DNA of 64,000 bases, taken from the NCBI GenBank assembly GCA_900545665.1, contig UQZU01000009.1:1476-65475 (forward strand), written 5' to 3'. Shown piece after piece: positions 2-62,858 of this stretch (the first letter of the stretch is position 1; every line of letters starts with the position of its first letter). The position numbers were made by a program, and so were the translations under genes. The stretch is from an uncultured Collinsella sp. GTDB taxonomy: Bacteria; Actinomycetota; Coriobacteriia; Coriobacteriales; Coriobacteriaceae. The notes beneath the pieces were generated by a model. The model was given only the letters and a program-made list of their open reading frames with translations, ran no database searches and had not been told where the DNA came from.

Positions 2-1765
2 CATGGCGAGTACGAAGCCTTTATGCACATCCTCAACAACTGCTCGGGCGTCGTGCGCGAGCATGTCGACGAGATTTTTGGCGACACGCTCACCTTTGAC
101 GAAAAGGGCGAGCTGTGCACGCTCATCTACTACCCGCACGAGAAGATCGAGCTGGTCCGCAGCCAGCGCGAGGACTCGCCCACCTGGTACAAGACGATGC
201 TTGACCAGCTCATCATGGTCGCTCGTTCGCTTTCAAGCCGCTACACGCGCTCCAAGGTGCGTAAGGCCATACCGCGCGATTACGCCTATATCATCGACGA
301 GTTGTTGCACACGCACCCGGACGAGAACAACTATCGCGTGCGCTATCACGAGCGCATCGTGGAGTCCATCCTGGAGACCGCCAGCGCCGACGACTTTATC
401 GAGTCACTCGCCTCGCTCATCAAGCGCTTGGCCGTCGACCACCTGCACCTGGTGGGCGACATCTTCGACCGCGGCGGCGGTGCGGCCAAGATTATGGACC
501 GTCTGCTCACCTACCATTCACTCGACATCCAGTGGGGCAACCACGACCTGCTGTGGATGGGCGCTGCGGCCGGTGAGCCCGCCTGCATCGCCACGGTGTT
601 GCGCAACAACCTACGCTACGACAACTACGAGATCCTGGAGAACGACTACGGCATCTCGCTGCGTGAGCTTGTCGCCTTTGCCGATGCCACCTACACCGCC
701 GGTGAGTCCATCACCCCGCTGATCAAGGCCATCAACGTGCTGCTCTTTAAGCTCGAGGGTCAGATTATCCAGCGCCACCCCGAGTTCGATATGACCGACC
801 GCCTGTTACTCGACAAGATCGAGCACGACACCGGCACGGTCACGCTCGCCGACGGCAGCGTATGGCCGCTCACGACCAACGACTTCCCCACCGTCGATCC
901 GGCGGACCCCTATACGCTCACGTCTCAGGAGCAGCACATCATCGACAAGCTCGTGTCCGAGTTTGTCACCGCCGATCACCTGCATCGCCATATCGATTTC
1001 CTCTATTCCCACGGCTCGATGTACAAGGTCGCCAACGGCAACCTGCTCTTCCATGGCTGCGTTCCGCTCAACGAAGACGGCACCTTTAGCAGCATGAACT
1101 GCCTGGGCACCTGGCACGCCGGCCGCGATTATCTCGATTTTTGCGACCACATCGCCCGCCGCGCGTGGCGCGTGGGCGACCGCGATGCCCTCGACTGGAT
1201 GTGGTACCTGTGGATTGGCTTCAATTCACCCGCCAGCGGACGCCTGGTGCGTACCTTTGAGCGCGCCTATATCGCCGATAAGAGCACCTGGGTCGAGCCG
1301 ATGGACCCGTACTTTACGCTTACCAAGTCGCCCTCGGTCTGCGACGACATCATGCGCGAGTTTGGCGTCGCGCCCATGGCATGTTCGCCGACCGGCCACA
1401 TCATCAACGGCCACACGCCCGTTAAAACCACCAAGGGCGAGCAGCCCATCCGCGCCAACGGCAAGCTGCTGGTCATCGATGGCGGCTTCTGCCGCGCTTA
1501 CCATCCCAAGACGGGTATCGCCGGCTATACGCTTATCTCGAGCTCGCGCGGCTGCCGCCTCAAGTCGCACCGGGCCTTTACGACGGTTGCCGAGGCACTC
1601 ACGCGCAACGTGGACATCGAGAGCGAGACCAACCGTTTTGACCAAGCGGACCGTCGCCGCATGGTGAGCGACACCGATACTGGCGCCAAAATTCGCAGCC
1701 AGATCCAGGACCTGCGCCAGCTGCTCGATGCATATAGAAACGGTGCTATCGAAGAGCGCGTCTAG
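2..1765 (+). CDS. fbp: Fructose-1,6-bisphosphatase class 3 (5' end cut by window edge)
   Basis: The frame is open from the window edge (HGEYEAF precedes the first Met at 23). Metallophosphoesterase motifs HLVGDIFDRGG and GNHDLLWMG are present, and the overall sequence is typical of Firmicutes-type FBPase III. Stop at 1763-1765. Confidence 0.9.
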   Translation, partial: HGEYEAFMHILNNCSGVVREHVDEIFGDTLTFDEKGELCTLIYYPHEKIELVRSQREDSPTWYKTMLDQLIMVARSLSSRYTRSKVRKAIPRDYAYIIDELLHTHPDENNYRVRYHERIVESILETASADDFIESLASLIKRLAVDHLHLVGDIFDRGGGAAKIMDRLLTYHSLDIQWGNHDLLWMGAAAGEPACIATVLRNNLRYDNYEILENDYGISLRELVAFADATYTAGESITPLIKAINVLLFKLEGQIIQRHPEFDMTDRLLLDKIEHDTGTVTLADGSVWPLTTNDFPTVDPADPYTLTSQEQHIIDKLVSEFVTADHLHRHIDFLYSHGSMYKVANGNLLFHGCVPLNEDGTFSSMNCLGTWHAGRDYLDFCDHIARRAWRVGDRDALDWMWYLWIGFNSPASGRLVRTFERAYIADKSTWVEPMDPYFTLTKSPSVCDDIMREFGVAPMACSPTGHIINGHTPVKTTKGEQPIRANGKLLVIDGGFCRAYHPKTGIAGYTLISSSRGCRLKSHRAFTTVAEALTRNVDIESETNRFDQADRRRMVSDTDTGAKIRSQIQDLRQLLDAYRNGAIEERV

Positions 1766-1843
1766 CCCCACCCGCGGGGATTGGCTAAACTTGCTGAGTT
1801 TGTCATCCCCATGGCGTCCCCGCGCCACCCTAAGGCAGGTACC

Positions 1844-2239
1844 ATGCAAAAGCTCCTTGCGCAGATCATGAAATTTGGCGTCGTCGGTGTCATTGCCACG
1901 GTTATCGACTTTGGCATTATGAATCTGCTCCACTACGGTCTGGGCCTCAACATCCTAATCGCCAACACCAGCGGCTTTATCATCTCACTCATCTTTAACT
2001 ACCTCGCAAGCATGAAGTACGTGTTTGCGCACAAGGAAGGCATGAGCCGCCGCCGCGAGTTCATCATCTTTGTCGTGCTGTCCGTGATCGGTTTGGTGCT
2101 CAACGACGGCATCGTGCTGGCGCTCAACGCCGGCCTGGGACTCGAGGCCAATATCGCCAAGATCTGCGCCACCGCGCTTGTCATGGTCTACAACTTTGTG
2201 ACCCGAAAAATCTTCCTGGAGGGCGACGAGACAAAATAG
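1844..2239 (+). CDS. GtrA family membrane protein
   Basis: ATG at 1844 is preceded by AAGG; the track start at 1781 is a TTG over-extension. Small polytopic protein with GtrA-like segments KFGVVGVIATVIDFG, MKYVFAHKEGMSRRREF and YNFVTRKIFL. Confidence 0.8.
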   Translation: MQKLLAQIMKFGVVGVIATVIDFGIMNLLHYGLGLNILIANTSGFIISLIFNYLASMKYVFAHKEGMSRRREFIIFVVLSVIGLVLNDGIVLALNAGLGLEANIAKICATALVMVYNFVTRKIFLEGDETK

Positions 2240-2260
2240 CTCGAAACCCCTGCAGCATTA

Positions 2261-2310
2261 CGACACCCACGGACGACGCGCACTCAGCGCAGTATCGTCC
2301 GTGGGTGTCG
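2261..2310 (+). terminator. Long GC hairpin downstream of the first GtrA gene
   Basis: Perfect 16-bp stem CGACACCCACGGACGA / TCGTCCGTGGGTGTCG with an 18-nt loop. The following T-tract is weak (ctcgttt). Confidence 0.5.
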
Positions 2311-2458
2311 CTCGTTTACGGGCAAATTTTCAACGTTTGCGGATTAGCTCTTGAAAATTTGGCGAGTTCATATAGTTCTTGGCAAAGACCTTACGTTTCC
2401 CTTGTAAAAGCTCTAAAGTATCCTCTGCTCGATTCATCAACGCATTGGATGTGATTAC

Positions 2459-2866
2459 GTGCGCAAGGCGCTGGCACAACCTCATACCAAGCAGTTCCTC
2501 AAGTTTGCTGTCGTGGGTCTTATCTCCTTTGGCATCGACTGGGGCATGCTCATTGCGCTCGTCGAGCTGTTCCACCTCGACTTTTTGATGAGCACCACGG
2601 TTTCGTTTATCACGTCCGTCGTGGTCAACTACTGGCTCAGCATGAAGTACGTGTTCGACCACCGCGAAGGCATGAGCCGCAAGCGCGAGTTCACGATCTT
2701 CACCATCCTGTCGGTGATCGGCCTGGGCCTCAACGACCTGTACATGTTTGTGGGCGTCACGTTTTTGAGCATCGGCTACCAGGCCATGAAGGCCATCGCC
2801 ACGTTCCTCGTCACCTGGTACAACTACTTCAGCCGCCGCTTCTTCCTCGAGGGCGCACGGTCGTAG
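2459..2866 (+). CDS. GtrA family membrane protein (tandem paralog)
   Basis: GTG start. Sequence parallels the upstream paralog (FLKFAVVGLISFGIDWG, MKYVFDHREGMSRKREF, WYNYFSRRFFL). Confidence 0.8.
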   Translation: MRKALAQPHTKQFLKFAVVGLISFGIDWGMLIALVELFHLDFLMSTTVSFITSVVVNYWLSMKYVFDHREGMSRKREFTIFTILSVIGLGLNDLYMFVGVTFLSIGYQAMKAIATFLVTWYNYFSRRFFLEGARS

Positions 2867-3025: not shown

Positions 3026-3937
3026 CTAGCCCGTTACGTAATACCAAACGACGTTGTCACCATTGGAGAGAACGTAGTTACTGCAGGCCGTCATGGGCGT
3101 TGTGCCGTTGACGGAGTACATCCAGCCGCTCGTGCCGCCGTACTGTTTCTCGGCCAAACCACCAATCGCAGAAACATACGTGCCGTACGATGAGCCGTGT
3201 GCGTTGACAGAAAGGCCCAGCGCGCACAGGGCATCGTAAACGGTGGCGCCTTCGTTAAAGGTAAAGGTGCCGCCAGAGGACACGGGATTGCCCACAGCGC
3301 TCGATGTGACCGAAACCGTCACCGTAACGTAGTTGGACTCCTGTGAGCCGCTTTGGCTGCCCGAGGAGGCGTTTCCACCATTAGGGGATGAGGCTCCATC
3401 AGACGACTGGCCACCGCCCGAAGAAGCACCGCCAGACGCATTGGAAGTATCACCGGCTCCCGTATTTTGGGCAGCGGATTTATCGCCAGACCTCTTGCTG
3501 TCCTGGCCATCGGACTTCTTGCTATCCGAGCTTTTGTCCGATTCCTTGTGCGAAGACTCGGAATCATCCTTGGCGTCGTTCGAGCCCTTGGACTCATCTT
3601 TTGCAGCATCCGAAGATTTGGAATCCTTGGAACTGGCCTCGCCCGAAGCGGTAGACGAGCCAGACCCCTTGGTGTCCTTGGCGACGACGCTCTCCCCCGT
3701 CACGGTCTGAACGATCCAGTCAATGGACCAGGCGCCGCTCTCGGAAGGATGGACGAAGCCCAGCGAGACGACGATCAGAATGGTGCACGCGGCAGCAAGA
3801 ACGCCAAGGAGCGCCTTGCGACGAGATGCGGACGCCGCCGAAGCGGCGCCCTGTTGCTTTGCATCGTCGAACTGAATGAACGAGGAATCTGGTTGCTTGG
3901 GGTCAGCGTCCTTGGATTTATTGGACACAACCCTCAC
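3026..3937 (-). CDS. N-terminally membrane-anchored DUF4430 (transcobalamin-like beta domain) protein
   Basis: Signal-anchor helix LLGVLAAACTILIVVSLGFV, a long S/D/K/G-rich low-complexity spacer, and a C-terminal DUF4430-like module (TFTFNEGATVYDAL...GGTSGWMYSVNGT...LSNGDNVVWYYV). The GTG start directly abuts the TAG of the upstream gene. Confidence 0.8.
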   Translation of the reverse strand: MRVVSNKSKDADPKQPDSSFIQFDDAKQQGAASAASASRRKALLGVLAAACTILIVVSLGFVHPSESGAWSIDWIVQTVTGESVVAKDTKGSGSSTASGEASSKDSKSSDAAKDESKGSNDAKDDSESSHKESDKSSDSKKSDGQDSKRSGDKSAAQNTGAGDTSNASGGASSGGGQSSDGASSPNGGNASSGSQSGSQESNYVTVTVSVTSSAVGNPVSSGGTFTFNEGATVYDALCALGLSVNAHGSSYGTYVSAIGGLAEKQYGGTSGWMYSVNGTTPMTACSNYVLSNGDNVVWYYVTG

Positions 3938-6900
3938 CTACCGACGTTTGGTGAACACGAACACGCCGACGATGGCGAGACCGATGACGCCGGCGGCAAC
4001 GCCAACAATGGCGAGCGGGTTGGTGCCAGTCTCCTGCTCGGAAGCACTGGAGGACTTCTTAGCAGTGGTCGTGGAAGCAGCACCCGTATCGGACTTCTTG
4101 TCGGACTTGTTGTCCTTCTTGTCAGACTTCTTCTCATCCTTCTTGTCGGACTTGTTTTCCTTGGTCTCGGCCTTGGTCGACACCGTCGTCTTGGTCGTCG
4201 GCTTATGACCCGGGGCGACAGCGCCGCCCTTCGAGCCGGAGCCGGAACCCGTGCCAGTGCCAGCGCCAGTGCCGGAACCAGTACCGGTACCAGAACCGCC
4301 GCCGCCATTCGAACCTGCGCCGCCATTACCGCCAGGGTTAACGGCATTCTTGGTCCACTTGGCATACAGCGTCAGATCGGCCGTCACCGGCGTGGCGAAG
4401 TCATACGCCCGCGTGCAGGCTTCATCGGTATACCAACCGCCGAAAGTGTAGCCATCGCGCGTCGGATCGGCCGGCTTGACCAGCTTGCCATCGGCCGTGG
4501 CAACAAACTTAGTGTCGCAAGCAGACCCGCCGTTGGAATTAAAGGCAACCGTCCAAGACTCAACGGCCCCAAGCTTGAACAGCGTGCCCGAGTCATTGAT
4601 GTAGTACAGGTTGCCAGATGCATCGGCAATGACCGGAGAGTCACAGTACTGGTAATGGCCAGCCGCATCATAAATCTGCGTCGCCTCTGCATCGCCGAGC
4701 GTATAGCGATACACCCCACCACCAGCAGAGTAGCTGACGTAGTCCTTGCTATCCGCGCTATTAACGGTGAAGTACACATAGGTCTTGCCGCCCTGAACAC
4801 TCACCAGCGGAGTAGCAGCAATACCGTTAAATCCGGCCGGTAGCTCTTTACCGTCAGCAGCGGTGACCATCGTGGTCTTACCAGTCTTCAGATTATAGAG
4901 AACCAGAGCAGATCCAGTAGCCGTCTGCCCACCGACAATCAAGTTGTCGCCAGACATCGCCGGGGCGCTCATGTTGTTCGTAAGACCCAGGTCGACCGTC
5001 TTCTGCTCGCTCAGCACGCCCTTCGCCGAAAGCGAAATCACATGGAGCTTTCCGTCGTGCGTCATCTGATAGAAGGTCGAGCCATTGGACGGATCGGCGA
5101 CGCAGTCAGCGTTCGCAAGGGTGCCGAGCTTCATGGTCGAAACGACATCGCCCGTTGCCTTATCAATGCACTTAAGCGTACCTGCGCTCGTGGGGACGAT
5201 GGCGTACTTATCCGTCAGGGCAGCGCCAGTCCAATAATAGCCCTCAGCTGCGTCGATGTTCTGCCAAGAGACTTCGCCTGTGGTGATCTTGATGCGCGTA
5301 AAGGAACCGTTGACGTATTTCTTCCCATCAGCCGTACCTACATAGACGTACTCGCCGTCCGAAACGACGGTGCAGGAGCTCTGCGTCAAGTCCGTCAAAC
5401 CAGGCGTCAGCCACTTGCAGATCAGCTTGTCTGCAGTAATCGCCTGGACCGCACCGCCGTTGAGCGGAACGATGATAAGGCCGTTGGTATAGATCGGACG
5501 GGAGGTATAGCTCACCTTGGAGGCAAGCGGCGCAGAGGCAACCTTTTTGCCCGTGGACGAATCGATCTTAATGAGCTCGTTCTCGGTCGCGATGTACACA
5601 AAGCCGTTGGCGATGACAGGTTCGCTGCAGTTGGCATACTGCTGACCAGACTCGGCCTTCCAATCGAAGGCCCACTTAAGACCGGAAGCCTGCGCAGGCG
5701 TCTTGGCATCCGTTACGGTCGAACCGTTGCCACTGTTGCCGTAGCCGGCCCACTCGGCATCCCAATCAGGAGTCGTCGCGCTCGGATCCACGACAATCTT
5801 GTCGGGATCGGGCATGGGCGAATTATCGGTGGTATAGGCAAGCGTGACCTTATCGCCGCTCTTGAGCGTAATCTGATTGGCGCAGAGTAAGGAGGGCTCT
5901 CCGTTGATATACAGATGCCAATATTTATTGGTCGCAGCATCCCAACCATACGGCTTGTGATCGAACGGCGAAGTAATGGAATTCAGGAACCAGTACTCAC
6001 CACTCTGGGAGCCGTTGTACGCAACGCCCTTGGCCTTCAGAACTGCCTCAATAAGGTTCTGGGCCGTGGAGCCTTCGGGCAGAGAAACATTGCTTGCCGT
6101 GCCCCAACGCGTATTGTTCCCGTTGACATCGGGACCGATAACATCGGCGGATCCAAGCACCTGACCGGGGAGGACATCGGCGTCAGCACCATACATAAAG
6201 GTGACGGCGTCACCCTCCTGGAGCTTGTAGGCACCGGCGCCAACGTCGGCGAACTTGCCATTTACGTAGAAGCGCCAATAGCTCTTGGTCGCAGCATCCC
6301 AGCCATAGGACTTACCATCAAACGGCGAAGTAATGCCGTTGAGGAACCAGCCCCAAGACGATTCGCCAGCATCGAGAGTAAGGCCGGTCTGCTCAAGGAG
6401 ATCCTTGGCAGTAGAGCCTGCCTTGAGACTCGTCTGGCCCGTCGAAGCCCAAATCTGCTGCTTGCCGTCCTTGTCCTTACCAAGCACCTGAACGGAAGCA
6501 TGAACGGAATCAGAGGGCAGCTGGTCGCCCCAGCCACCGTAGAACCACGTGACGGTATCGCCAACATGGATGGTGACATTGTCCGCCGTATAGTCACTCG
6601 ACTTGCCGTTGATGAACAGCTGCCAATAGGTCGAATAATCTTGGGGCGTACCCAGTTCAACACCGTTGTACTTAAGGCTCAGAATGAAGGAGCCCGCAGC
6701 AACGGCGTCGATGCCATTCGCCTCAAGCGCGACCTTCGTAAGGTCAAGTGCGCTCGAGCCGGACGTCACCACATACTGCGCGTTATCGACCCAGGTCTGA
6801 GTCTTGCCCTGGGCATCGCGACCAATGACGGTCACATTTGCGGCAACCTGGTCCTTAACGACAGGGGACGAGCTACCAGCCGTATAGGCAAACTCAATCT

Positions 6901-7651
6901 TCTGCCCCCGGGTGAGCTTGACGCTGCTCGCGCCAACCGAGGAAGACGCGCCGTCGACGAACAGCTGCCAGTAGGCATAGGTCGTCGGATCGTAGGCAAG
7001 CGTGCGGCCATCGCTCGGGGATGTGATGCTTTCGAGGTAGAAACCGTATGCCGTGTTCGGATCGTACTTCGCCTTGAAGCCCGTCTTCTCCTGCAGCTTA
7101 ATGAAGGCATCCGCAGCCGTCGCGCCCTCGTCGAGCTTGAGCTGCGTAGGTGCCACCCAGGTCTGAGCCCTGCCGTCAGCATCGGTGCCGATAATCGAGA
7201 ACGAGACCTCGACCTGCTTCTTGGCAACATCGCCGGTTTCTGTCGGGTTCTCTGTCTGAACGGCAGCCGCGGCGGCAGATCCCACTTGGCCAGCGGATGC
7301 CGTCGAAGACTGCTCGCTCGTGGCAGGGCTCTCCCCCGTCGCCGAGCCTTCGTCGCCAGTTGCTGCCTCTGTTGTGGCTGCACTAGCTGCAGGCGCGCCC
7401 TCGGAATCCGAAACCTCGGCGCCGCTCTGCTCAGCGGTACCGCCCGCAAGCGCTGCGTCCTCGCCCGGCGTCGCAGTCTGAGCCACAGCCTCGGCAATGC
7501 CCTCGGCGCCCTCGGCCCACAGCTGAGCCGGTGTGGTGCCAAAGGCCATCGCGAAGGCCAGGAATGCCACCAGGCCGCGCTTGGCTACGCCGCGCGCAAT
7601 TGCGCCACGGCGATGCGAGACGCGCTGGCGCTCGTCCTCAAACATATCCAT
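3938..7651 (-). CDS. Giant tail-anchored surface protein: signal peptide, 4x DUF4430 repeats, PQQ/BamB-like beta-propeller, Flg_new (Listeria-Bacteroides) repeat, K/D/S-rich spacer, C-terminal TM
   Basis: Start reassigned to ATG 7651, with AGGAGA 4 nt upstream; the track start at 7795 is a TTG inside the riboswitch leader. N-terminus RGLVAFLAFAMAFGTTPAQLWA is signal-like. Four ~112-aa repeats end YWQLFVDG..KIEFAY, YWQLFING..TVTWFY, YWRFYVNG..AVTFMY and YWHLYING..KVTLAY. Repeated propeller blades include GFVYIATENELIKID and DGEYVYVGTADG. A DGYTFGGWYTDEACT..LTLYAKW repeat follows. C-terminus is IVGVAAGVIGLAIVGVFVFTKRR. Confidence 0.85.
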   Translation of the reverse strand: MDMFEDERQRVSHRRGAIARGVAKRGLVAFLAFAMAFGTTPAQLWAEGAEGIAEAVAQTATPGEDAALAGGTAEQSGAEVSDSEGAPAASAATTEAATGDEGSATGESPATSEQSSTASAGQVGSAAAAAVQTENPTETGDVAKKQVEVSFSIIGTDADGRAQTWVAPTQLKLDEGATAADAFIKLQEKTGFKAKYDPNTAYGFYLESITSPSDGRTLAYDPTTYAYWQLFVDGASSSVGASSVKLTRGQKIEFAYTAGSSSPVVKDQVAANVTVIGRDAQGKTQTWVDNAQYVVTSGSSALDLTKVALEANGIDAVAAGSFILSLKYNGVELGTPQDYSTYWQLFINGKSSDYTADNVTIHVGDTVTWFYGGWGDQLPSDSVHASVQVLGKDKDGKQQIWASTGQTSLKAGSTAKDLLEQTGLTLDAGESSWGWFLNGITSPFDGKSYGWDAATKSYWRFYVNGKFADVGAGAYKLQEGDAVTFMYGADADVLPGQVLGSADVIGPDVNGNNTRWGTASNVSLPEGSTAQNLIEAVLKAKGVAYNGSQSGEYWFLNSITSPFDHKPYGWDAATNKYWHLYINGEPSLLCANQITLKSGDKVTLAYTTDNSPMPDPDKIVVDPSATTPDWDAEWAGYGNSGNGSTVTDAKTPAQASGLKWAFDWKAESGQQYANCSEPVIANGFVYIATENELIKIDSSTGKKVASAPLASKVSYTSRPIYTNGLIIVPLNGGAVQAITADKLICKWLTPGLTDLTQSSCTVVSDGEYVYVGTADGKKYVNGSFTRIKITTGEVSWQNIDAAEGYYWTGAALTDKYAIVPTSAGTLKCIDKATGDVVSTMKLGTLANADCVADPSNGSTFYQMTHDGKLHVISLSAKGVLSEQKTVDLGLTNNMSAPAMSGDNLIVGGQTATGSALVLYNLKTGKTTMVTAADGKELPAGFNGIAATPLVSVQGGKTYVYFTVNSADSKDYVSYSAGGGVYRYTLGDAEATQIYDAAGHYQYCDSPVIADASGNLYYINDSGTLFKLGAVESWTVAFNSNGGSACDTKFVATADGKLVKPADPTRDGYTFGGWYTDEACTRAYDFATPVTADLTLYAKWTKNAVNPGGNGGAGSNGGGGSGTGTGSGTGAGTGTGSGSGSKGGAVAPGHKPTTKTTVSTKAETKENKSDKKDEKKSDKKDNKSDKKSDTGAASTTTAKKSSSASEQETGTNPLAIVGVAAGVIGLAIVGVFVFTKRR

Positions 7652-7794
7652 TTGTCTCCTACTGTCTGCACTTGGAGCGTTGCCTTGAGACTGCCCCACG
7701 TCATCGCGCATGTTGCGCTCGAGTTCCCCCATCGGGGTCCCCCTTCCCTCCAGAGCCCTATGCACACCGGCGGCAAAAGCCGCAGCCGCATGCA

Positions 7795-7968
7795 AGACGG
7801 GAGGCGATCCGACTTAACCTTAACGACTCGGGCACGTCGTCCGATCTGCGACGCGAGCATCCCGAGCCAAGAGGAATTACGGTTACTGGTACAGCTGGGG
7901 ACTTGCACCCCGATTCTCCCAAATGCGCAGGATAACCGCGCATTCGTGCGTCTCCGCACCACCATCTA
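7795..7968 (-). promoter_or_regulatory. Cobalamin (B12) riboswitch-like leader
   Basis: The minus strand reads GGTGGTGCGGAGACGCACG, then hairpin AATGCGC-ggttatcct-GCGCATT, then TGGGAGAATCGGGGTGCAAGTCCCCAGCTGTACCAGTAACCGTAA. This matches the conserved GGGA..GGTGCAAGTCC..GCTGT.CC..AC.GTAA core. It is followed by stem CTCGGG...CCCGAG with a nested CGTCG/CGACG hairpin and a B12-box-like AAGTCGGATCGCCTCCC. A separate terminator (8003-8031) lies upstream. Confidence 0.75.
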
Positions 7969-19096: not shown

Positions 19097-19122
19097 AGAA
19101 AAGGGCCGGTTGCAGCCGGCCC
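19097..19122 (-). terminator. Probable terminator about 220 nt downstream of the zinc-ribbon gene
   Basis: The minus strand reads GGGCCGG-ctgcaa-CCGGCCC followed by TTTTC. Confidence 0.5.
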
Positions 19123-19342
19123 TAGACGATAATACCTGCGTTGCCCGCGTCTCCGAAGTTTAAGCGCTGAGGAGCGGGTTCCGCGGCACAACCTGATTTT
19201 ACCCAGTGAGGCAGCTCTTTTGCAGCCGCTCCACTGTTTATTTACATCTGGCACCCTCAAACAATCAGACAGCAGCCCGCACTCCTGAGAGCCGCCCCGC
19301 ACCCCCGGCCATCACGTTACGGCAACAACCGGCGCTACTCCC

Positions 19343-20680
19343 CTACTTCCCAAAGATCGCAGCAAACAAGCCCTTGCGTTTGGGCTTTTCCTCTCGGTAA
19401 GAACCCTCGACGGCGGCTGCCACCTGACGCGGCTGCTCGCCGTCTCCACGGCGCACAATCTGATAGAGGAACGGCGATTTAACGTATTTGACCTCGACGG
19501 GCGTGGCGTGCACGGTGCTCTCGCCGGACAGATGCAGGCTCGGGTTGAGCGGCGCCACGATATGCGTCTCGCGCTTGTCGCTAAACACTACCGCTGCCGC
19601 ACGACCCGTCTGGCCGTTCACGGCGATGCGCACCTGCTCGCCATCGCGGCCATCCGTCGCCGGACGGTCGACAAAGTACACCGGCACCATCACCAAACCG
19701 TCCTTGTGTTTGCGAGCCTTGCGCGCCCAGGTGCGGATGCTCTTTTTATTGAGCCCCAGTACAGCCTCGGCGTCGTTGCCCGCAATGTCGAGCGCCAACT
19801 TATCAATGACCACCTGGTCCTTGGTAGACGCATCGACGGAGACGACGCGGAAGTCGCCTTCCTGCATGGCAGGGTCAAACGGCCCAACCTTGGCATAGTC
19901 CCACGGCTCCAAAATGCCCATAAGTCGAACATCCAGATAGTTTGCCCTCGGATACGCCCAGTCGAGCACCTCGTAGTACACCAGGGTTTCCTTGCTCAGG
20001 CCCTTGCCCGGGAAGCTCGCCATCATGCGCAGGTCCGCCAGCGCCATGGGGAAATAGAAGAGCATCATGTCGTTTTGGATCGCATCTTCCACGTCGTGCC
20101 CGGCAAAGGCGTCGGGGTACTGGCGCACCAGCTGCAGTGCGTTGGCACGTGCCTGCTGCGGCGAGATTTCGCAGGGAATGCCCTGCTCCGGCACATACTC
20201 CGCACCCACGCCCATGGTCAGACGCTTGCTGAAGGTACCGGGCTTGAGCAGGTCGGCAATGCCGATCTTGTTGCCGCAGGACGGGCACTCAAACACGCGC
20301 TGCGTTGACTCGCCCTCAAAGGACGCTCCGCAGAAGGGGCAAGGAATGCTCACATGCGTGGCCTCTTGGAACTCTTGCGCCGTGCCGCGATCCTCCCACA
20401 GCAGATGTTCCAGGACCGACTGATTGCGCCAGTGCGAATTGAAGAAATACCAGTCCGGGTCCTCCGGGCGCTCGAGTTGCGACACATGCGTGAGCTTGAG
20501 CAGTCCATCCACCACCGTCAACGGCGTATGGCGAATGCCCAAAGCGCTCTTGGGCTCTCCGGCGTCCGCCTGCCACGGAATGACCGCACCGCAATAGGCG
20601 CACTCAAAGCTGCGCTTAGCCTGGTGCGAGTACATAGGGCCGCCGCAGTTTTGACATTTAATGGCAAACATCTCGTCCAT
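19343..20680 (-). CDS. Uncharacterised double zinc-ribbon protein with MinD-like C-terminal amphipathic tail
   Basis: ATG 20680 has AGGAGG 8 nt upstream. CQNCGG..x..CAYCG and CPFCG..x..CPSCG ribbons are followed by a ~290-aa domain of unknown function. The protein ends KPKRKGLFAAIFGK. Confidence 0.75.
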   Translation of the reverse strand: MDEMFAIKCQNCGGPMYSHQAKRSFECAYCGAVIPWQADAGEPKSALGIRHTPLTVVDGLLKLTHVSQLERPEDPDWYFFNSHWRNQSVLEHLLWEDRGTAQEFQEATHVSIPCPFCGASFEGESTQRVFECPSCGNKIGIADLLKPGTFSKRLTMGVGAEYVPEQGIPCEISPQQARANALQLVRQYPDAFAGHDVEDAIQNDMMLFYFPMALADLRMMASFPGKGLSKETLVYYEVLDWAYPRANYLDVRLMGILEPWDYAKVGPFDPAMQEGDFRVVSVDASTKDQVVIDKLALDIAGNDAEAVLGLNKKSIRTWARKARKHKDGLVMVPVYFVDRPATDGRDGEQVRIAVNGQTGRAAAVVFSDKRETHIVAPLNPSLHLSGESTVHATPVEVKYVKSPFLYQIVRRGDGEQPRQVAAAVEGSYREEKPKRKGLFAAIFGK

Positions 20681-20898
20681 GGAAACGTCCTCCTTTGCAC
20701 AGGGGCTGTCGACATTAAGTATGTCGAGCAAACAGGCACATGCCCATACCCATGTGGCCCAAAATGGACCACCCAGGCAGACGAGAAGGCTCGCTCGTTA
20801 GCACCGGCAGACTATTGCTGCATTTTCTGAGCATCGGTGCACGGCGCCCCCGCGCGAGCTACACTATCCCCTTAAACATGATTGTGAGGACGACCGCT

Positions 20899-22092: not shown

Positions 22093-23079
22093 CTAGTTTC
22101 CCTGCGCGCCCGAGATGCCGTTTTGCAGCGCGTCCCAGGCATTGGTAGCCATATCGCCCAGATTCTGAGCAGTATCGCCGAGGTTTTGGGCTGTATCGCC
22201 CAGCTCTTGTGCCTTGTCTCCCAACTCCTGTGCCTTGTTGCTCAAATCCTCCAGCGTATTGGAGCTCGAGCTGTCGGTACCGCTTTGGCCGCCGGACGAG
22301 TTGCCATAGCTGTTCTTGTGCGTGAGCTGAATCTCCAGGTTGCCGTTGTCGTTATAGTAGGCATTCGTAACAACCCAGTTGGAATCGATGACGGGCGTTG
22401 AGCCATCGTCGGTCAGGATCACGGCGTTCGAAAGGTCGGCTCCGCGTGACTTGAGGAGCTTCTTGGCGTTGGACCAGTACTGTCCCGGGATATCGCTCAG
22501 GTCGACGGCAGCAGACTGGGTGGTCTCGGCCTGCTCGGTCGTGGCATCGGTCGTGGCGCCCCGCTTGTTGAGCATGCCCGACACGATGGCGAACACGACC
22601 GACAAGGCAAAGAAGATCGCCAGCACAATCAGGATTTTCTTGATCACGCTCGACGGACGCGACGGTGCCTTCTCCTCGTCCTCACCATACTGCGGAATCG
22701 ATTTGGGATACTCGCGATACGGCTGGCGCGACTCGTAGCGAGGCTGCGCCGTGCGAGGCAAATACGTCGTCTGCTGAGGCTGCGGAATGGGATTCTGCGG
22801 CAGGTTGTCATAGGAATTCGGCGTCGAGGCAGCATAAGAATCCTGCGGCGCGTAATCAAACGGATCCGGAGCTGCGTTGCCATAGGGGCCTTGCGAAGAT
22901 GCAGCGTAAGAATCCTGCGCCGTGTCGCCATAGCCCATAACCCGGGTGGGCTCGGCAGAAGGCTGCGTCGCGGCGGGGTCGGTATAACCGGGGTTGGGAA
23001 CAACGCGGGTCGCATCGACGCTATCGCCAGCCTGCGCGGAACCGTAGCCGCCCATCACGGTTGTCTTGTCCTGATCCAT
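22093..23079 (-). CDS. Single-pass membrane protein: P/Q/Y-rich N-terminus, TM helix, PASTA-like extracellular segment, heptad-repeat tail
   Basis: AAAGGA RBS. TM helix ILIVLAIFFALSVVFAIVSGML. Four 21-nt tandem units at 22153-22236 encode (A/T)Q(E/N)LGD(K/T) repeats. Confidence 0.7.
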   Translation of the reverse strand: MDQDKTTVMGGYGSAQAGDSVDATRVVPNPGYTDPAATQPSAEPTRVMGYGDTAQDSYAASSQGPYGNAAPDPFDYAPQDSYAASTPNSYDNLPQNPIPQPQQTTYLPRTAQPRYESRQPYREYPKSIPQYGEDEEKAPSRPSSVIKKILIVLAIFFALSVVFAIVSGMLNKRGATTDATTEQAETTQSAAVDLSDIPGQYWSNAKKLLKSRGADLSNAVILTDDGSTPVIDSNWVVTNAYYNDNGNLEIQLTHKNSYGNSSGGQSGTDSSSSNTLEDLSNKAQELGDKAQELGDTAQNLGDTAQNLGDMATNAWDALQNGISGAQGN

Positions 23080-37656: not shown

Positions 37657-40600
37657 CTAGAGATTGTAGGTGACTACTTGGGGTTCGGCGGGTTCGACGA
37701 AGATGGCCGGATTCGCCTGCTCCACGCGAACGAACTTGACCGTCACCGTCTCAAAGCCCGCCTTGTGCAACGCATCGGCGTAGACGCGCGCCTGCAGGGC
37801 GTGCTTCTCGAGCAGCTGGTCCGGCGTCTCATCCGGCGTGCCACCCGTCTTGTAGTCGATGACCAGTGCGCGCGACGGATCGGCCGGGTCGGTGGCCAGT
37901 GCATCGATGGCGCCCTCGGCATATGCACCGTAGCGGGCAATGTCCTTGTCCTCGCAGCCCAGCGAGAAGAACGGTACCTCGGCACGAACGCACGGCCAGG
38001 CAAGCAGCTCGGCACGGACCGCCGACTTGAGCCAGCGATCCAGAGCGACATCGAAGCGCTGGCGCTGCTCCGGCGTCAGGCGCCACAGACGCGCCAGCGC
38101 ATCGGCGCGCGCAGCGGGCAACGCATCGGCACCCATCTCGATGAGCCACTGGCAGGCGGCGTGGAACGCCGAGCCCAGCGCCATGGGATTGCCGGCGGGC
38201 TCGACAGCAGCCACGTCCGCATCCGTCATCTCCGAGCCATCCGACTCCGCATCATCGCCAGCCTCGTCCATGGGCACGCGCGTCTCGGCGGCACGGTCCT
38301 CGGCCTCGGCATGCAGCGCCGCGGCAATCGACGAATAGCTGTACGAATCACGCACCGGAAACGGACAGATGCCCATGCGCACGCCCGCCGCCTGGGGATA
38401 TACGAGTTCAAACGAATCGGGCTTGGGGTCGGCAGGACCGGGGACGGCGGCGCGGGCATCTGCACCGGCACCCTCCGCCCCCGCATCGCCACGAACGAGC
38501 CTGCCCTCGGCATCCAGCGAAGCGTTGGCCTCAAACGCCTGCTCGCCAAAGGTAAAGTCCGAAAGCGAAATGAGCTCGTAGTCACCCGGCTGGGAGTTGT
38601 CGAACACCAGGCGGTCGGCATCGAGCTGCGGCATGTCCAGAGCGTCGGTCGGCAAAATACGGCGCAGCACGTCGTGGGTCAGATCGGTCTCGACGTCGAA
38701 GGTCGGCGCACACAGCTTGCCACGGCTCACGCCGGCATCCATCGCCAAGATCACCAGCTCGCGCGCACGCGTCATGGCGACATAGAGCAAGCGGGCCCGC
38801 TCCTCGAGCGAAAGCCGCAGGTCGTCGTTGCGCAGGCGAGCAAATGCCTCGGCGGGAGAACCCGTCGCACAGACGTCCTCCATGAGCTCCGGCGGCAGCC
38901 ACAGCGACGTGCCCTTGCCCTTAAACGCATGCTCAAACTGCTTTTTGACGTCGTCGCCCTTCACAAAGGTTCCGTCGGCGAGCTTAACGCCGTCGAAGCG
39001 TGCCGGCAGTGCCACGACCTGTGCTCCGCCCTCGACGCGACCCATCTGTGCCGCACCCGAGGACTTACGCACGCCAAAGCACTCGGCGACCGCCACGACC
39101 GGATATTCCAGACCCTTGGAGGCGTGCACCGTCATGATGCGCACCGCCCCGTCGCCCTCCTCGTTGAGGGCACCCGGAGCTTCCTTGCCCGCCAAGAAGC
39201 GGTCGAAGGCCAGCGCGATGGAACGCGGCGAGTTGCCGAAATCGGCCTCCGCCTCGGCCACGGCGTCGAGCGCCTTGAGCACGTTGGCGGCAATGGCCTT
39301 GCCCTCGGGACCACGCTGTGCCAGACGCACAAACCAGCCGGAGGCGTTGACCACGTCGCGCGCAATGGCGGCGAACGAATCACGGCCCACGCGACGAAGC
39401 GCATACCGCAGCACCTCGCGGGCGCGCGTCACGAGCGGCAAGTCTTGCAAACCCGGCACGTCGAAATCACTCATGATGCCCGCGTCGATATTCCGGCGCG
39501 AGGTCTCCCCCGTCTCGCTATCGAGCTTGGTCGCCAGCGCCAGGAACTCCTGGGCGCCGAGCGCAAACATCGGCGAGGCGAGCAGCGGCATAAGGCCCTG
39601 CGCCGTATCGGCCGGATTGGCGAGCGCACAAACCAGGGCGCGCACCGTCTGCACCTCGGCTGCTTGGGCAAAGACCGAGCCGCCCGCGATGACGCAGTCG
39701 AGCCCCTGGTCGCGGAAGGCCTGTGCGTAGACGTCGGCGTTGGTCATGCGGCCCAGCAGCAGCACCATGCCGCCCTGGGGCTGGCCGGCATCGGCAAGCG
39801 CGCGGAATCGCTCGGCGATCGCACGGGCCTTGGCCTGCGTGCGCTCCTGCGTACTGCCGCCGGCAACAAAGAGCGCCTGGCGACGCGAGGCGTCTGCCAC
39901 CAGCGTGTCCTTGCGGCCGTCGCTCGCCTCAAGATCCAAAAAGCCCTGCATCAGGCCGCCGTCATCGCCGTCGAAGACGCGTGCCACGTAACGCAGCACC
40001 TCGTCATGGCTGCGGAAATTGCGCACGAGCTTGACGAGCTCGCCGGTGGGGACATCCGGCGTGGCGACCGTCTCGGACGCCACCGTCGATCCCACTTTGC
40101 GCTCCTGGCGACGGAACACCTCGACCTCGGCGCCGCGGAAGCGATAAATCGACTGCTGCGCATCGCCCACGGTGCACAGCGCGCGCTCCCCCGCACCCGT
40201 CAGGTAGCGTATCAGATCGACCTGCATCTGGTCGGTATCCTGAAACTCATCGATCATGACCATCTTAAAGCGGCCCTCGTACGCAGCACGGATGGCAGGG
40301 TAATCGCGCAACGCCTCGTAAGCCATACGCAGCAGGTCGTTATTATCGAGAGCGGACTGGGCAGCCTTCAGCGCGCGATACTCAGCCTCCACGGAACGGG
40401 CCAGGCCCACCAGCGCATCGAGCGCCGGGCCACCGCAGGCAAGCACGATATTGATAAACGCATCGGCGGCCTCGGCCTTGAGCAGCTCGACCTGCTCCTT
40501 AGGGAATGCCTTGCTCGCGCGCGGCATGGTGCACGACATCATGAGTCGCGCTGCATCGGCCATGGTCTTGCCGCTCGCCTCGAACGCGTCAATGGCGTCG

Positions 40601-41289
40601 AGTGCCATCTGCGCCTTCTCGGTCGCGGCCTTGCTTGCGCCCAGCGCCGCGCGATAGGCATCGGCGAGTGCCGAGGTATCGGCCTGGCCGCGCGCCACGC
40701 ACACGTCGTCCATACCGCCCGGCAACTGGCTCGACAGCTCCAGCAGGTCGCGCACCAGGCCCTTGATGGTCGTGCCGGTGCCAAAGGAACCGCCCTCGCC
40801 CGCCATGGGATACCAGGCATAGAGGGCCTTGAGCGATGCCGCGAGCTCGGGGGCGGCATCGGGCGCCGTCGCGCGGGCCAGCACATGCTCAACAGCCTGG
40901 TCCATAAGCTCGTCGGTATCGGTGAGCACCGTGAACTCGGGGTCGATGCCCAGCTCCAGCGCATGCGCGCGCAGGATACGCGAGCACATGCCGTGAATGG
41001 TCGAAATCCACGCGTCGTCGACGGTCAGTGCTTCCTCGTCCATGCCCTCGTCGATAAGCGCACGGCGCACGCGGTCGCGAATCTCGGCCGCGGCATCTTT
41101 GGTAAAGGTAATGGCGAGCACCTGGTCCAGATGCTCAACGAACGGACCGGATTCGGGCGAGAGCGCATAGACGATGCGACGCGTGAGGGTAAAGGTCTTG
41201 CCCGAACCGGCGCCCGCCGAGACAAACAGCGGACGGTCGAGCGTCTTGACGATCTGCAGCTGTTGCGGCATCAAGGTCGAAAGATCCAT
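37657..41289 (-). CDS. addA: ATP-dependent helicase/nuclease subunit A (UvrD-like helicase plus RecB-type nuclease)
   Basis: GAGSGKTFTL, MIDEFQDTD, TVHASKGLEY and a C-terminal VIDYKTG nuclease motif. AAGGAGG RBS lies inside the end of addB. Confidence 0.88.
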   Translation of the reverse strand: MDLSTLMPQQLQIVKTLDRPLFVSAGAGSGKTFTLTRRIVYALSPESGPFVEHLDQVLAITFTKDAAAEIRDRVRRALIDEGMDEEALTVDDAWISTIHGMCSRILRAHALELGIDPEFTVLTDTDELMDQAVEHVLARATAPDAAPELAASLKALYAWYPMAGEGGSFGTGTTIKGLVRDLLELSSQLPGGMDDVCVARGQADTSALADAYRAALGASKAATEKAQMALDAIDAFEASGKTMADAARLMMSCTMPRASKAFPKEQVELLKAEAADAFINIVLACGGPALDALVGLARSVEAEYRALKAAQSALDNNDLLRMAYEALRDYPAIRAAYEGRFKMVMIDEFQDTDQMQVDLIRYLTGAGERALCTVGDAQQSIYRFRGAEVEVFRRQERKVGSTVASETVATPDVPTGELVKLVRNFRSHDEVLRYVARVFDGDDGGLMQGFLDLEASDGRKDTLVADASRRQALFVAGGSTQERTQAKARAIAERFRALADAGQPQGGMVLLLGRMTNADVYAQAFRDQGLDCVIAGGSVFAQAAEVQTVRALVCALANPADTAQGLMPLLASPMFALGAQEFLALATKLDSETGETSRRNIDAGIMSDFDVPGLQDLPLVTRAREVLRYALRRVGRDSFAAIARDVVNASGWFVRLAQRGPEGKAIAANVLKALDAVAEAEADFGNSPRSIALAFDRFLAGKEAPGALNEEGDGAVRIMTVHASKGLEYPVVAVAECFGVRKSSGAAQMGRVEGGAQVVALPARFDGVKLADGTFVKGDDVKKQFEHAFKGKGTSLWLPPELMEDVCATGSPAEAFARLRNDDLRLSLEERARLLYVAMTRARELVILAMDAGVSRGKLCAPTFDVETDLTHDVLRRILPTDALDMPQLDADRLVFDNSQPGDYELISLSDFTFGEQAFEANASLDAEGRLVRGDAGAEGAGADARAAVPGPADPKPDSFELVYPQAAGVRMGICPFPVRDSYSYSSIAAALHAEAEDRAAETRVPMDEAGDDAESDGSEMTDADVAAVEPAGNPMALGSAFHAACQWLIEMGADALPAARADALARLWRLTPEQRQRFDVALDRWLKSAVRAELLAWPCVRAEVPFFSLGCEDKDIARYGAYAEGAIDALATDPADPSRALVIDYKTGGTPDETPDQLLEKHALQARVYADALHKAGFETVTVKFVRVEQANPAIFVEPAEPQVVTYNL

Positions 41290-41292
41290 GGT

Positions 41293-46136: not shown

Positions 46137-46389
46137 GTATAGTGCTGCCTTTCGGTTATTTAGTCCGTAGAAATTCTAGCCGAAATATTGGTTTTGAAAA
46201 TACCCGTTCCGGTCAAGATGGTTAATCGACTCGTAATAATCTTCTATTTCCTATTGCGTTACTAGGCTTTACTGTCTACTATGCTTGCCAACAGCAAAAC
46301 GAACAACCCATAAGGTTTGTGGGTTTCGCTGCTACACACACCGTAAAACCACACGGTATCCAGTCATTTGAACACTTTGGAGGTTCACC

Positions 46390-47328: not shown

Positions 47329-47440
47329 GGCCTGTCGCCCATAGGTTGAGCCCACGGACGAGCCGGTCTCCTCTCTCCCGGCAGTCTGAGCCCATCCAAT
47401 CAGGGTGTCCCACGAGACGCCCGAACTTGCTACAATGTCT

Positions 47441-62856: not shown

Positions 62857-62858
62857 CG

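Follow-up and report, generated by a model that had tools for sequence, protein, structure and literature searches.

A DUF4430–propeller surface protein of Collinsella aerofaciens encoded behind a cobalamin riboswitch: a candidate system for extracellular B12 capture

What might be the function of a large surface protein that carries four DUF4430 domains, a beta-propeller and a Flg_new repeat on a C-terminal membrane anchor? The question is raised by a gene in a 64-kb stretch of DNA (referred to here as the window), the host of which is Collinsella aerofaciens. Given that four domains of a B12-docking type and a propeller are encoded behind a B12 riboswitch, the locus is, as judged from sequence, a strong candidate for an extracellular B12-capture system of a kind so far undescribed in Gram-positive gut bacteria. 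The riboswitch, the adjacent gene for a tethered DUF4430 domain and the ECF genes of relatives give the finding its meaning.

Integrity and anatomy of the gene

The open frame of the large gene spans positions 3938–7795 of the minus strand, with AGGAG located 5 nt 5′ of the ATG at 7651 and an alternative start, ATG 7732, that would yield a product of 1264 amino acids. The possibility of an assembly chimera, raised in the initial annotation, was excluded: the genomes of two cultured C. aerofaciens isolates contain the 5.2-kb operon in collinear, ungapped form at 99.6–99.8% identity, and of 80 species-representative loci, 69 preserve the reading frame. The gene is also shown to be genuine by the 120 best-scoring homologue clusters (88–97% identity, from many separate assemblies), which share its architecture.

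Examination of the whole anatomy at the sequence level confirmed the domain order proposed initially, including the single Flg_new repeat, which was recovered by Pfam (Table 1). The tail, described as a G/S/T linker, a KSDKK spacer, a transmembrane helix and KRR with no sortase signal, was present in that form. The helix comprises 21 hydrophobic residues (Kyte-Doolittle maximum of 2.73 at residue 1215), and a motif scan of the large protein yielded no match to LPXTG or LAXTG. An ETG sequence before the helix was considered as a cleavage motif and rejected, because it is replaced by EAG or ETS in close homologues. Inspection of the signal peptide revealed no lipobox. Membrane rather than sortase anchoring, claimed for this one protein, proved to be a family trait, with a helix and basic tail in 47 of 48 divergent members, and the other surface protein of the window (14843–17338) does contain the LADTG signal ascribed to it, as KLADTG.

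Table 1 Features of the operon and its leader in the window
Feature	Position	Strand	Basis or remarks
Cobalamin (B12) riboswitch aptamer	7793–7924	(-)	Directly 5′ of the large gene; covariance-model and Rfam matches
Remaining 5′ leader, presumed expression platform	7652–7792	(-)	Sequence
Large surface protein, CDS	3938–7651	(-)	1237 aa; homologues 1225–1289 aa
N-terminal signal peptide	7514–7651	(-)	aa 1–46; core GLVAFLAFAMAFG, ...LWA/EG; read from sequence
Low-complexity segment, A/E/G/T/S-rich	7217–7513	(-)	aa 47–145; composition
DUF4430 repeat 1, transcobalamin beta-domain fold	6851–7216	(-)	Pfam and motif
DUF4430 repeat 2	6509–6850	(-)	Most divergent copy, without ITSPxD segment
DUF4430 repeat 3	6164–6508	(-)	Copy used for AlphaFold model
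DUF4430 repeat 4	5804–6163	(-)	Conserved linker VDPxAxRPDWxAxWxG joins propeller
PQQ/BamB-type beta-propeller, probably eight-bladed	4562–5803	(-)	aa 617–1030, conserved linker included at N-terminal end
One Flg_new (Listeria-Bacteroides) repeat	4352–4561	(-)	Pfam E 8.5e-22; PDB sequence match, internalin B B-repeat
G/S/T-rich linker and KSDKK-type charged spacer	4016–4351	(-)	Sequence and composition; presumed wall-spanning
C-terminal transmembrane helix LAIVGVAAGVIGLAIVGVFVF, then TKRR, stop	3938–4015	(-)	Type I membrane anchor
Second operon gene	3026–3937	(-)	303 aa; start abuts stop codon of large gene
GC-rich palindromic hairpin, likely terminator	2893–2922	Reported on (+)	Terminator scan; between operon end and convergent GtrA gene

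The DUF4430 repeats and the propeller

The four DUF4430 stretches scored 153.5 bits in Pfam (E 2e-45; cutoff, 23.8). The pattern YW.(L/F)(F/Y)(V/I)(D/N)G...(F/L/W)(A/F/M)Y attributed to the repeats was found in all four, and its Trp is invariant in 18 diverse domain sequences. For an AlphaFold model of repeat 3 (pLDDT 95.3), the best 19 Foldseek matches (E 8e-6 to 1e-3) were the beta-domains of intrinsic factor, transcobalamin and haptocorrin together with a bacterial DUF4430 structure, 3u7z; the next matches were ~100-fold worse in E-value. The five best PDB sequence matches of the repeat profile were transcobalamin and haptocorrin. The repeats are thus transcobalamin-like, as had been suggested, in both family and fold.

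Comparison with the mammalian B12 carriers revealed, in addition to the shared Pfam family and fold (TM-score of 0.73, query-normalised, and rmsd of 2.5 Å for intrinsic factor 2pmv versus the repeat model), that the FWQL/YWEL of the carriers aligns with the conserved Trp of the Collinsella repeats, although sequence identity is only 15–22%. Unlike the carriers, the Collinsella protein is bacterial and membrane-anchored and has a tandem array of four such domains fused to a propeller, with a fifth domain on a separate protein, whereas the alpha6/alpha6 barrel partner is missing.

The propeller had been assigned at least seven blades, which was right; its AlphaFold model (pLDDT 90.3, pTM 0.84) matched the eight-bladed propellers of BamB, YxaL and PQQ dehydrogenases, and eight blades are therefore likely. 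Foldseek matches to these proteins and to tetrathionate hydrolase had E values of ~1e-13. The BamB, YxaL and PQQ-dehydrogenase propellers were the best structural matches (TM-score up to 0.72, target-normalised), with sequence identity of only 10–19%, and the context of BamB differs in that Collinsella has neither an outer membrane nor a BAM complex. In Pfam, the propeller of the window protein matched Beta-prop_ACSF4 alone, below threshold (32 bits versus a cutoff of 133), whereas the propellers of relatives passed PQQ_2. Motifs conserved in this propeller family are EGYYW.G, GGGVYRY and GNLYY.NDSG.LF.

The fusion is not the odd one-off that the initial annotation implied. A search for the domain order identified a recurrent module, with one to four DUF4430 domains placed directly before a propeller in 51 of the best 150 representatives of 50%-identity clusters. 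Of the 51 representatives with a propeller, 49 keep this adjacency, as does every riboswitch-linked relative; the whole module is doubled in some proteins, and Ig-like domains (aBig_2, DUF7601) are added in larger relatives. The architecture had also been described as uncharacterised, and we found no characterised example in the literature; existing names are only “DUF4430 domain-containing protein” or “PQQ-binding-like beta-propeller repeat protein.”

The second gene and the cobalamin riboswitch

The second protein of the operon consists of an N-terminal membrane helix, an S/D/K/G-rich tether of ~140 amino acids and a C-terminal DUF4430 domain (nt 3029–3331; Pfam, 68.3 bits, E 8e-19). The same gene pair is present in most relatives (L002, L003, L004, L087, L088, L089, L090 and L091). 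In three distant relatives (L087, L089 and L086), the pair is followed by genes for an ECF/CbiO-type ATPase and an EcfT-like protein, the PDB matches of which were EcfT only (E 3.5e-4). No corrinoid transporter is encoded within the 64-kb window. Neither the second DUF4430 gene nor the ECF genes of relatives featured in the initial annotation.

The aptamer upstream of the large gene is a variant with a ~70-nt insertion at the P6 position, within which lies a conserved (C/U)AGAUCGG(A/G) loop, and the 3′ element of the aptamer, UAAGUCGGAUCGCCUCCC, is B12-box-like. Rfam gave a partial AdoCbl-II match at 7849–7930 (29 bits, E 1e-4), under the gathering score of 36.5, whereas Rfam thresholds were passed at the equivalent position in two relatives (L087, 78.6 bits, E 9e-18; L090, 37.3 bits). 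A custom covariance model constructed from the leaders of three relatives only, with the window leader left out, matched the window over its full length (88.6 bits, E 2e-22) as the sole strong match in 64 kb. This model leans mainly on sequence conservation among related leaders and speaks to homology, not to ligand binding; on that basis, the window leader is homologous to leaders recognised by Rfam. Compensatory changes were observed at 8 of the 26 predicted pairs of the aptamer. At ten loci, those of the window and of 9 of 11 divergent relatives, the homologous gene is immediately preceded by a cobalamin-clan match, and ~94 kb of the relatives' DNA contained no further such match with E <= 0.1. 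The minimum free energy fold of the leader is undistinctive (z -0.49), and a terminator scan detected no terminator-like site in 7652–7792. The riboswitch lies outside the region treated in the initial annotation and was missed there.

Corrinoid scavenging and alternative explanations

We consider that the locus is probably a B12-riboswitch-controlled two-gene operon that captures corrinoids (vitamin B12, related cobamides and precursors) outside the cell and relays them inward. Ample intracellular B12 would be bound by the leader RNA and expression would drop, whereas scarcity would lead to synthesis of both proteins. The large protein would be exported via its signal peptide and retained in the membrane through its C-terminal helix, with the long spacer projecting the Flg_new repeat, the propeller and the four transcobalamin-beta-like domains through the wall. 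Each DUF4430 domain would be expected to dock one corrinoid, in the manner of the isolated human transcobalamin beta-domain, and the tethered DUF4430 of the second protein would take the ligand near the membrane and hand it over to a transporter whose genes lie at another site of the genome; in the distant relatives, the genes for the T component and ATPase of ECF type come after the gene pair, behind the same riboswitch. The propeller, consistently linked directly behind DUF4430, may offer a further face for binding or a surface for docking. Counted against corrinoid capture are the missing alpha-domain, which confers sub-picomolar affinity on B12 carriers, the lack of a corrinoid transporter in the window, the sub-threshold Rfam score of the window leader and the heme role reported for a transcobalamin-beta-like protein of L. 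sakei. Cobalamin and cobinamide are both ligands of the isolated transcobalamin beta-domain (PMC5599065). The beta-domain is the part that contacts B12 first and most favourably, and in some organisms the B12 carriers consist of a beta-domain alone (PMC11107200). A B12 requirement has been reported for C. aerofaciens (PMC8123684).

The Bacteroides proteins BtuG, BtuGH (BT1490), BtuH, BtuJ and BtuK are likewise surface-exposed, controlled by B12 riboswitches and composed of several binding modules, as proposed for Collinsella. BtuGH is a fusion of a small B12-binding domain with a B12-binding propeller (PMC8941943, PMC13616437), BtuK1 is a B12-binding PKD-propeller, and a relay towards the transporter has been proposed (PMC8941943, PMC10404256, PMC13616437). 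The Bacteroides modules, however, belong to other families (seven-bladed propellers, the BtuH domain and DUF4465), whereas the Collinsella propeller is of the PQQ/BamB type with a likely eight blades, and BtuG was missing from the 50 propeller structure matches listed by Foldseek. Given that the propeller is of a different family from B12-binding BtuG (eight versus seven blades), any ligand role for it would be speculation. The Bacteroides proteins are also lipid-anchored on the outer membrane and paired with TonB-dependent BtuB, whereas the Collinsella protein is predicted to reside in a Gram-positive cytoplasmic membrane. In the Isd system, tandem NEAT-domain wall proteins that are sortase-anchored and Fur-regulated pass heme to a membrane transporter. 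By analogy, the Collinsella proteins are proposed to form arrays of small domains at different wall depths that move a tetrapyrrole inward and are expressed under nutrient limitation, although NEAT is unrelated to DUF4430 and sortase anchoring and Fur are replaced by a membrane helix and a riboswitch.

The operon might be B12-regulated and yet have a main job other than supplying its own transporter, such as a surface reservoir, deprivation of competitors, or docking of host carriers (intrinsic factor, haptocorrin) by the propeller for B12 stripping. Four binding-type domains per molecule would suit storage, Bacteroides BtuJ has been proposed as an extracellular reservoir (PMC13616437), the window operon is devoid of transporter genes, and protein docking is the typical role of BamB-type propeller scaffolds. 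We nevertheless regard this explanation as unlikely; the ECF transporter genes that follow the gene pair in three distant relatives link the family with import and argue against it.

It is quite unlikely that a different tetrapyrrole (heme, or a precorrin or cobyric acid precursor) is bound and that the operon serves heme or precursor uptake. An ECF operon of L. sakei (lsa1836–1840) with secreted transcobalamin beta- and alpha-like proteins has been reported to contribute to heme uptake (bioRxiv 10.1101/864751). This Gram-positive locus places an extracellular transcobalamin-beta-like protein beside ECF-type S, T and A components, a logic followed by the operons of L087, L089 and L086; its beta and alpha proteins, however, are single-domain with neither propeller nor tandem array, the paper reports heme uptake and mentions no riboswitch, and the window operon contains neither an alpha-like protein nor ECF genes. 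Also in favour of a different tetrapyrrole are the annotation of 3u7z only as “putative metal binding protein,” the description of C. aerofaciens as a precorrin-2 auxotroph carrying B12 synthesis genes (PMC8123684) and the cobinamide binding mentioned above. Salvage of a precursor would still be corrinoid scavenging and overlaps our preferred explanation. With regard to heme, cobalamin-clan riboswitch control recurs across the family; such riboswitches sense cobalamins, and we know of none linked with a heme uptake system.

An ordinary wall-associated adhesin or structural protein, with DUF4430 domains as generic beta-grasp spacers and leader matches that are irrelevant or a relic, is very improbable. 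Gram-positive surface adhesins are typically large and built with Flg_new repeats, propellers and low-complexity spacers, larger relatives have Ig-like domains and the Rfam match of the window is sub-threshold. The riboswitch position, however, is kept in ten loci with proteins 29–46% identical to that of the window (two passing curated thresholds), the matches of the repeats are confined to the domains of B12 carriers and a single bacterial DUF4430 structure that is uncharacterised, and ECF genes are linked in relatives.

Domain architecture, anchoring and distribution of the surface protein

The reading frame of the large gene, which encodes a surface protein of 1237 amino acids, is open on the minus strand from position 7795 to 3938, and AGGAG stands 5 nt upstream of its ATG at 7651; an alternative start, the ATG at 7732, is chosen by some gene callers in homologues. 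Three Pfam families of the protein were common to the 120 best-scoring homologue clusters, which derive from many separate assemblies and show 88–97% identity. The 5.2-kb operon that the large gene forms with the small gene could be aligned gap-free, at 99.6–99.8% identity, to the cultured isolates C. aerofaciens DSM 13712 and RTP21191st1, and 69 of the 80 loci from species-representative genomes keep the large-gene frame uninterrupted. Given that the operon is collinear in isolate genomes and that the architecture recurs in the 120 clusters, we rejected an assembly chimera, which the initial annotation had allowed for, and regard the gene as real.

Table. Positions of the features discussed (in the window unless another locus is named)
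Feature	Position	Strand	Remarks
Large gene	3938-7651	-	surface protein
Small gene	3026-3937	-	starts right after the stop codon of the large gene
Riboswitch element	7793-7924	-	leader of the large gene
Motif before the anchor helix	4016-4030		NP(L/W)A..G or (I/V)WP(F/Y)
GtrA genes	23-2866	+	two, convergent, after the operon
Second surface protein	14843-17338	+	PI-PLC X domain
Collinsella-1 RNA	19103-19296	-	Rfam RF01700, 198.7 bits
462-aa ORF	19343-20731	-	Cas12f1/TnpB-like TNB domain, 27.6 bits
1510-aa ORF	37678-42210	+	coding-like GC3 of 0.72; no Pfam match at E 1e-5
ORF without assignment	46279-47934	-	
ORF without assignment	50274-51563	+	
ORF without assignment	61798-63102	-	
ORF without assignment	22093-23079	-	
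Leader in relative locus L001	265-396 of L001		almost identical to that of the window
Gene in relative locus L001	457-3039 of L001		N-terminal segment almost identical to that of the window

Pfam identified four DUF4430 (PF14478) stretches in the large protein (153.5 bits, E 2e-45, cutoff 23.8), and the YW-type motif that had been described for these repeats was found in all four, with its Trp residue invariant in an alignment of 18 diverse DUF4430 sequences extracted as single domains. The top 19 PDB matches of a structure model for repeat 3 alone (pLDDT 95.3) were the beta-domains of the B12 carriers (intrinsic factor, transcobalamin, haptocorrin) and the bacterial DUF4430 structure 3u7z, with E values of 8e-6 to 1.2e-3; the modelled repeat matched intrinsic factor with a query-normalised TM-score of 0.73 and an rmsd of 2.5 Å. 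Below these matches, after a jump of about 100-fold in E value, came ubiquitin-like folds. For a profile of the five window repeats, the five best PDB matches were transcobalamin and haptocorrin, at weak E values of 1e-3 to 9e-3. The description of the repeats as transcobalamin-like is thus borne out by Pfam and by the model of repeat 3, which predicts the beta-domain fold of the carriers. DUF4430 is the C-terminal domain of the mammalian B12 carriers (PMC4350170), with whose beta-domain we group the window repeats by homology; that domain binds cobalamin and cobinamide in isolation (PMC5599065) and makes the first and most favourable contact with B12 (PMC11107200). Homology and the riboswitch context described below suggest that the DUF4430 domains of the window may also bind corrinoids. 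A candidate ligand-contact residue, W409, was dropped because it is the C-terminal residue of an expression construct.

The only Pfam match of the propeller region was Beta-prop_ACSF4, at 32 bits and below the cutoff of 133; the homologous proteins P0176 (47.5 bits) and P0141 (106 bits) passed the cutoff of 27.6 for PQQ_2. Repeat 4 and the propeller were modelled together from a 48-sequence alignment (pLDDT 90.3, pTM 0.84). The model arranges approximately 30 strands as eight four-stranded sheets, and its best matches among solved structures, namely BamB, YxaL, PQQ alcohol dehydrogenases and tetrathionate hydrolase (E ~1e-13), were without exception eight-bladed propellers of the PQQ type. The propeller is thus predicted to be eight-bladed and of the PQQ/BamB type, in agreement with the earlier estimate of at least seven blades. 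BtuG did not appear among the 50 structure matches listed, and homology of the propeller to BtuG was rejected in view of the eight blades and the PQQ/BamB likeness. The last DUF4430 domain is joined to the propeller by a conserved linker, VDPxAxRPDWxAxWxG. The single Listeria-Bacteroides repeat that had been proposed corresponds to one Flg_new (PF09479) repeat (77.5 bits against a cutoff of 27, E 8.5e-22), and this region also scored 42.8 on TIGR02543 (cutoff 20.95).

The COOH-terminus consists of a G/S/T linker, a KSDKK-type spacer and a 21-residue hydrophobic helix followed by KRR. No LPXTG or LAXTG motif was found in the large protein, nor was a lipobox, and NCBIfam reported no Tat model for it. 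The sequence SEQETG was considered as a degenerate LAETG sortase signal and rejected, because the T and G vary in close homologues (ETG becomes EAG or ETS in near-identical ones) and divergent members lack it. A true sortase pentapeptide was present in none of 48 divergent family members, 47 of which have a COOH-terminal membrane helix with a basic tail, as expected from the earlier proposal of a membrane anchor in place of a sortase signal. Directly before the anchor helix, the motif NP(L/W)A..G or (I/V)WP(F/Y) recurs across divergent members; it resembles no sorting signal known to us. The second surface protein of the window carries the LADTG-type signal attributed to it, as KLADTG, and its hydrophobic segment is followed by an acidic tail, DREDSEGASE, rather than a basic one.

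The domain fusion itself did not prove to be the unusual one-off that it had been taken for. An exhaustive search gave 34,015 matches among 50%-identity cluster representatives, most of them Flg_new arrays or single domains. Among the 150 best representatives, 51 contain the propeller, which in 49 has one to four DUF4430 domains immediately before it; Flg_new comes after the propeller in about two-thirds of these proteins, and three contain the whole module twice. A scan of species-representative genomes yielded 572 stretches encoding relatives of the module, the best 80 of which were all from Collinsella. Database names were limited to "DUF4430 domain-containing protein" and "PQQ-binding-like beta-propeller repeat protein", from Collinsella and, in a single case, Senegalimassilia. 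The statement that the architecture is uncharacterised stands: our literature search found no description of it, or of a function of bacterial DUF4430 in B12 uptake.

Many Collinsella assemblies contain the gene as two calls (for example, P0372, P0296 and P0310-P0315), namely a DUF4430-only NH2-terminal half of 660–800 amino acids and a COOH-terminal half with propeller and Flg_new of 550–640 amino acids; one COOH-terminal half occurs on 33 contigs. Such splits may reflect frameshift or pseudogene polymorphism, or an artefact of gene calling or contig ends. In the relative locus L001, the body of the protein is 32% identical to that of the window and ends after the propeller, without an anchor, and the gene is followed by unrelated MatE, TetR and GH2 genes. 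The locus may have arisen by allelic replacement, may hold a paralogue, or may have been misassembled at the shared leader.

A candidate cobalamin riboswitch in the leader

An Rfam scan of the entire window at gathering thresholds did not detect a riboswitch, and the element was revealed by two routes only, a local permissive scan and a comparative approach. The families RF00174 and RF01689 of the cobalamin clan CL00101 were considered. In the permissive scan, the leader scored 29.0 bits on AdoCbl-II (E 1e-4), below the gathering score of 36.5. We also compared eleven divergent loci whose proteins are 29–46% identical to that of the window. In nine of them, a cobalamin-clan match lies directly 5' of the homologous gene, these being the sole matches at E <= 0.1 in approximately 94 kb of the relatives' DNA, and in the other two the 5' region is truncated or split. 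Two relatives exceed the Rfam thresholds: L087, which reaches 78.6 bits (E 9e-18, threshold 31.5) with the classical Cobalamin model and whose element ends 38 nt before the start codon, and L090, with 37.3 bits on AdoCbl-II (threshold 36.5).

The low Rfam score of the window leader is attributable to an insertion of approximately 70 nt at a position where the Rfam model has a short loop, because the alignment closes a helix inside this insertion, the true 3' strand UAAGUCGGAUCGCCUCCC lying farther downstream. A custom covariance model, built only from loci L090, L002 and L003, gave one strong match in the 64-kb window (88.6 bits, E 2e-22), which was full length, and recovered the element immediately ahead of the homologous gene at 15 of the 18 other loci. 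RNAalifold showed compensatory changes in 8 of 26 pairs. By sequence comparison, the leader shares a conserved core, a B12-box-like element and helices that show covariation with recognised cobalamin riboswitches, and we propose that it represses the operon in the presence of B12. The minimum free energy fold of the leader does not stand out (z -0.49); an intrinsic terminator was not found in it, and no clear RBS-sequestering helix was identified.

Rfam models under-score this variant, with 21–33 bits in most loci; L001, L085, L002, L003 and the Collinsella loci share the element with the window. The insertion lies at the P6 position; its stems covary, and its loop is conserved as (C/U)AGAUCGG(A/G). 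Both this loop and the B12-box-like element contain a self-complementary GAUC, so that a tertiary contact is possible.

The partner gene and genomic context

The small protein has an NH2-terminal membrane helix, from which a long S/D/K/G-rich tether leads to a COOH-terminal DUF4430 domain (68.3 bits, E 8e-19), and the pair of large and small genes recurs in eight divergent loci. The pair is followed by a gene for a polytopic membrane protein in L087, L089 and L086, and in L087 and L089 by an ABC ATPase gene as well. EcfT subunits were the only PDB sequence matches of the polytopic protein (E 3.5e-4), in an alignment that spans the AM.ARG coupling motif. The L087 ATPase contains two ATPase domains and scored approximately 308 bits on ECF ATPase models and exceeded the cutoff of the CbiO subfamily model. 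The initial annotation had described the anatomy of the large protein correctly, and it had overlooked the riboswitch, the second gene and the ECF link.

Neither the window operon nor the rest of the 64-kb window contains ECF T or A components. No B12 transporter (including BtuB) or other B12 genes were found in the window, the other genes being of the housekeeping type. Pfam detected no transcobalamin alpha-like (alpha/alpha barrel) domain in either operon protein; the place beside the last beta-like domain of the large protein is occupied by the propeller. On one side of the operon lies an ABC1/UbiB kinase gene that has a terminator of its own, and on the other lie the convergent GtrA genes. 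Two such genes are likewise present in L002, L003, L004, L088 and L091; in L085 and L090 the contig includes at least one before it ends. Farther out, past the GtrA genes, L003, L088 and L091 carry a gene for a class 3 fructose-1,6-bisphosphatase. This neighbourhood marks one orthologous chromosomal locus across surface proteins of down to approximately 30% identity.

Proposed function and relation to known systems

The gut community is shaped by competition over vitamin B12 and related cobamides, and Collinsella aerofaciens is one of its common actinobacterial members in humans. To our knowledge, all mechanistic understanding of extracellular capture comes from outer-membrane lipoproteins of Bacteroides. 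Equivalent capture in Gram-positive gut bacteria, according to a 2026 review, "remains entirely uncharacterized" (PMC13616437).

We consider the window operon to be, more likely than not, a B12-repressed corrinoid-scavenging operon, the reading best supported by the predicted folds, the riboswitch homology and position, the conserved gene pair, the ECF linkage in relatives and the anchoring. The large protein would display four corrinoid-docking domains and the propeller beyond the wall, the small protein would keep a fifth docking domain close to the membrane, and the ligand would be handed to a transporter, which in relatives would be of the ECF type. More tentatively, the DUF4430-propeller family as a whole might constitute a riboswitch-controlled relay for cobamide capture in Gram-positive gut bacteria, built on the B12-docking fold of the mammalian carriers intrinsic factor and transcobalamin. 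Tandem beta-like domains would collect corrinoids at the surface of the wall; the eight-bladed propeller would stand in for the absent alpha-domain and close over the ligand on the neighbouring beta-like domain, or select it; and the tethered single-domain protein would bring the ligand to an ECF transporter.

Other roles are less likely than corrinoid scavenging. We see a rather small chance that the proteins serve as a reservoir, deprive competitors or strip host carriers. That the ligand is a different tetrapyrrole seems slightly less plausible still; heme uptake has been reported for an ECF operon of L. sakei that encodes transcobalamin-like proteins (bioRxiv 10.1101/864751), and C. aerofaciens has been described as a precorrin-2 auxotroph (PMC8123684). 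A plain adhesin is improbable because of the riboswitch evidence.

Corrinoid scavenging would place the operon nearest in function to the Bacteroides surface relay (BtuG, BtuH, BtuJ and BtuK), above all to BtuGH, which fuses a B12-binding domain with a B12-binding propeller (PMC8941943, PMC13616437). Like the BtuG family, the window operon lies behind a putative B12 riboswitch. The BtuG propeller, however, is seven-bladed (PMC13616437), whereas that of the window is predicted to be eight-bladed and of the PQQ/BamB type, and the window protein is a Gram-positive one with a COOH-terminal membrane helix in place of a lipobox and without a BtuB gene in the window. The small domains of the Bacteroides relay are also unrelated to those of the window, and anchoring and cell envelope differ. 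We therefore place the operon proteins outside the BtuG, BtuH, BtuJ and BtuK families. Among Gram-positive bacteria, the closest precedent is L. sakei lsa1836-1840, with single beta-like and alpha-like proteins, without a propeller and with no riboswitch mentioned; the window operon, in contrast, lacks ECF T and A components and a separate alpha-like partner. ECF linkage of the L. sakei type is a feature of L087, L089 and L086.

If these predictions are true, they provide a concrete and testable Gram-positive system for B12 capture, assign a function to bacterial DUF4430 domains and reveal a cobalamin riboswitch variant that present Rfam models under-detect; the docking fold of the human B12 carriers would then be used by gut bacteria that possibly compete with the host for the vitamin. 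The value of the analysis lies in this prediction of a function, which is anchored in the riboswitch and opens an acknowledged gap to direct testing, and not in the fusion, which is common in the lineage.

Elsewhere in the window, the Collinsella-1 RNA lies 47 nt downstream of the 462-aa ORF with the TNB domain, and a TnpB-type IS200/605 element may use this "sRNA" as its guide (omega/reRNA).
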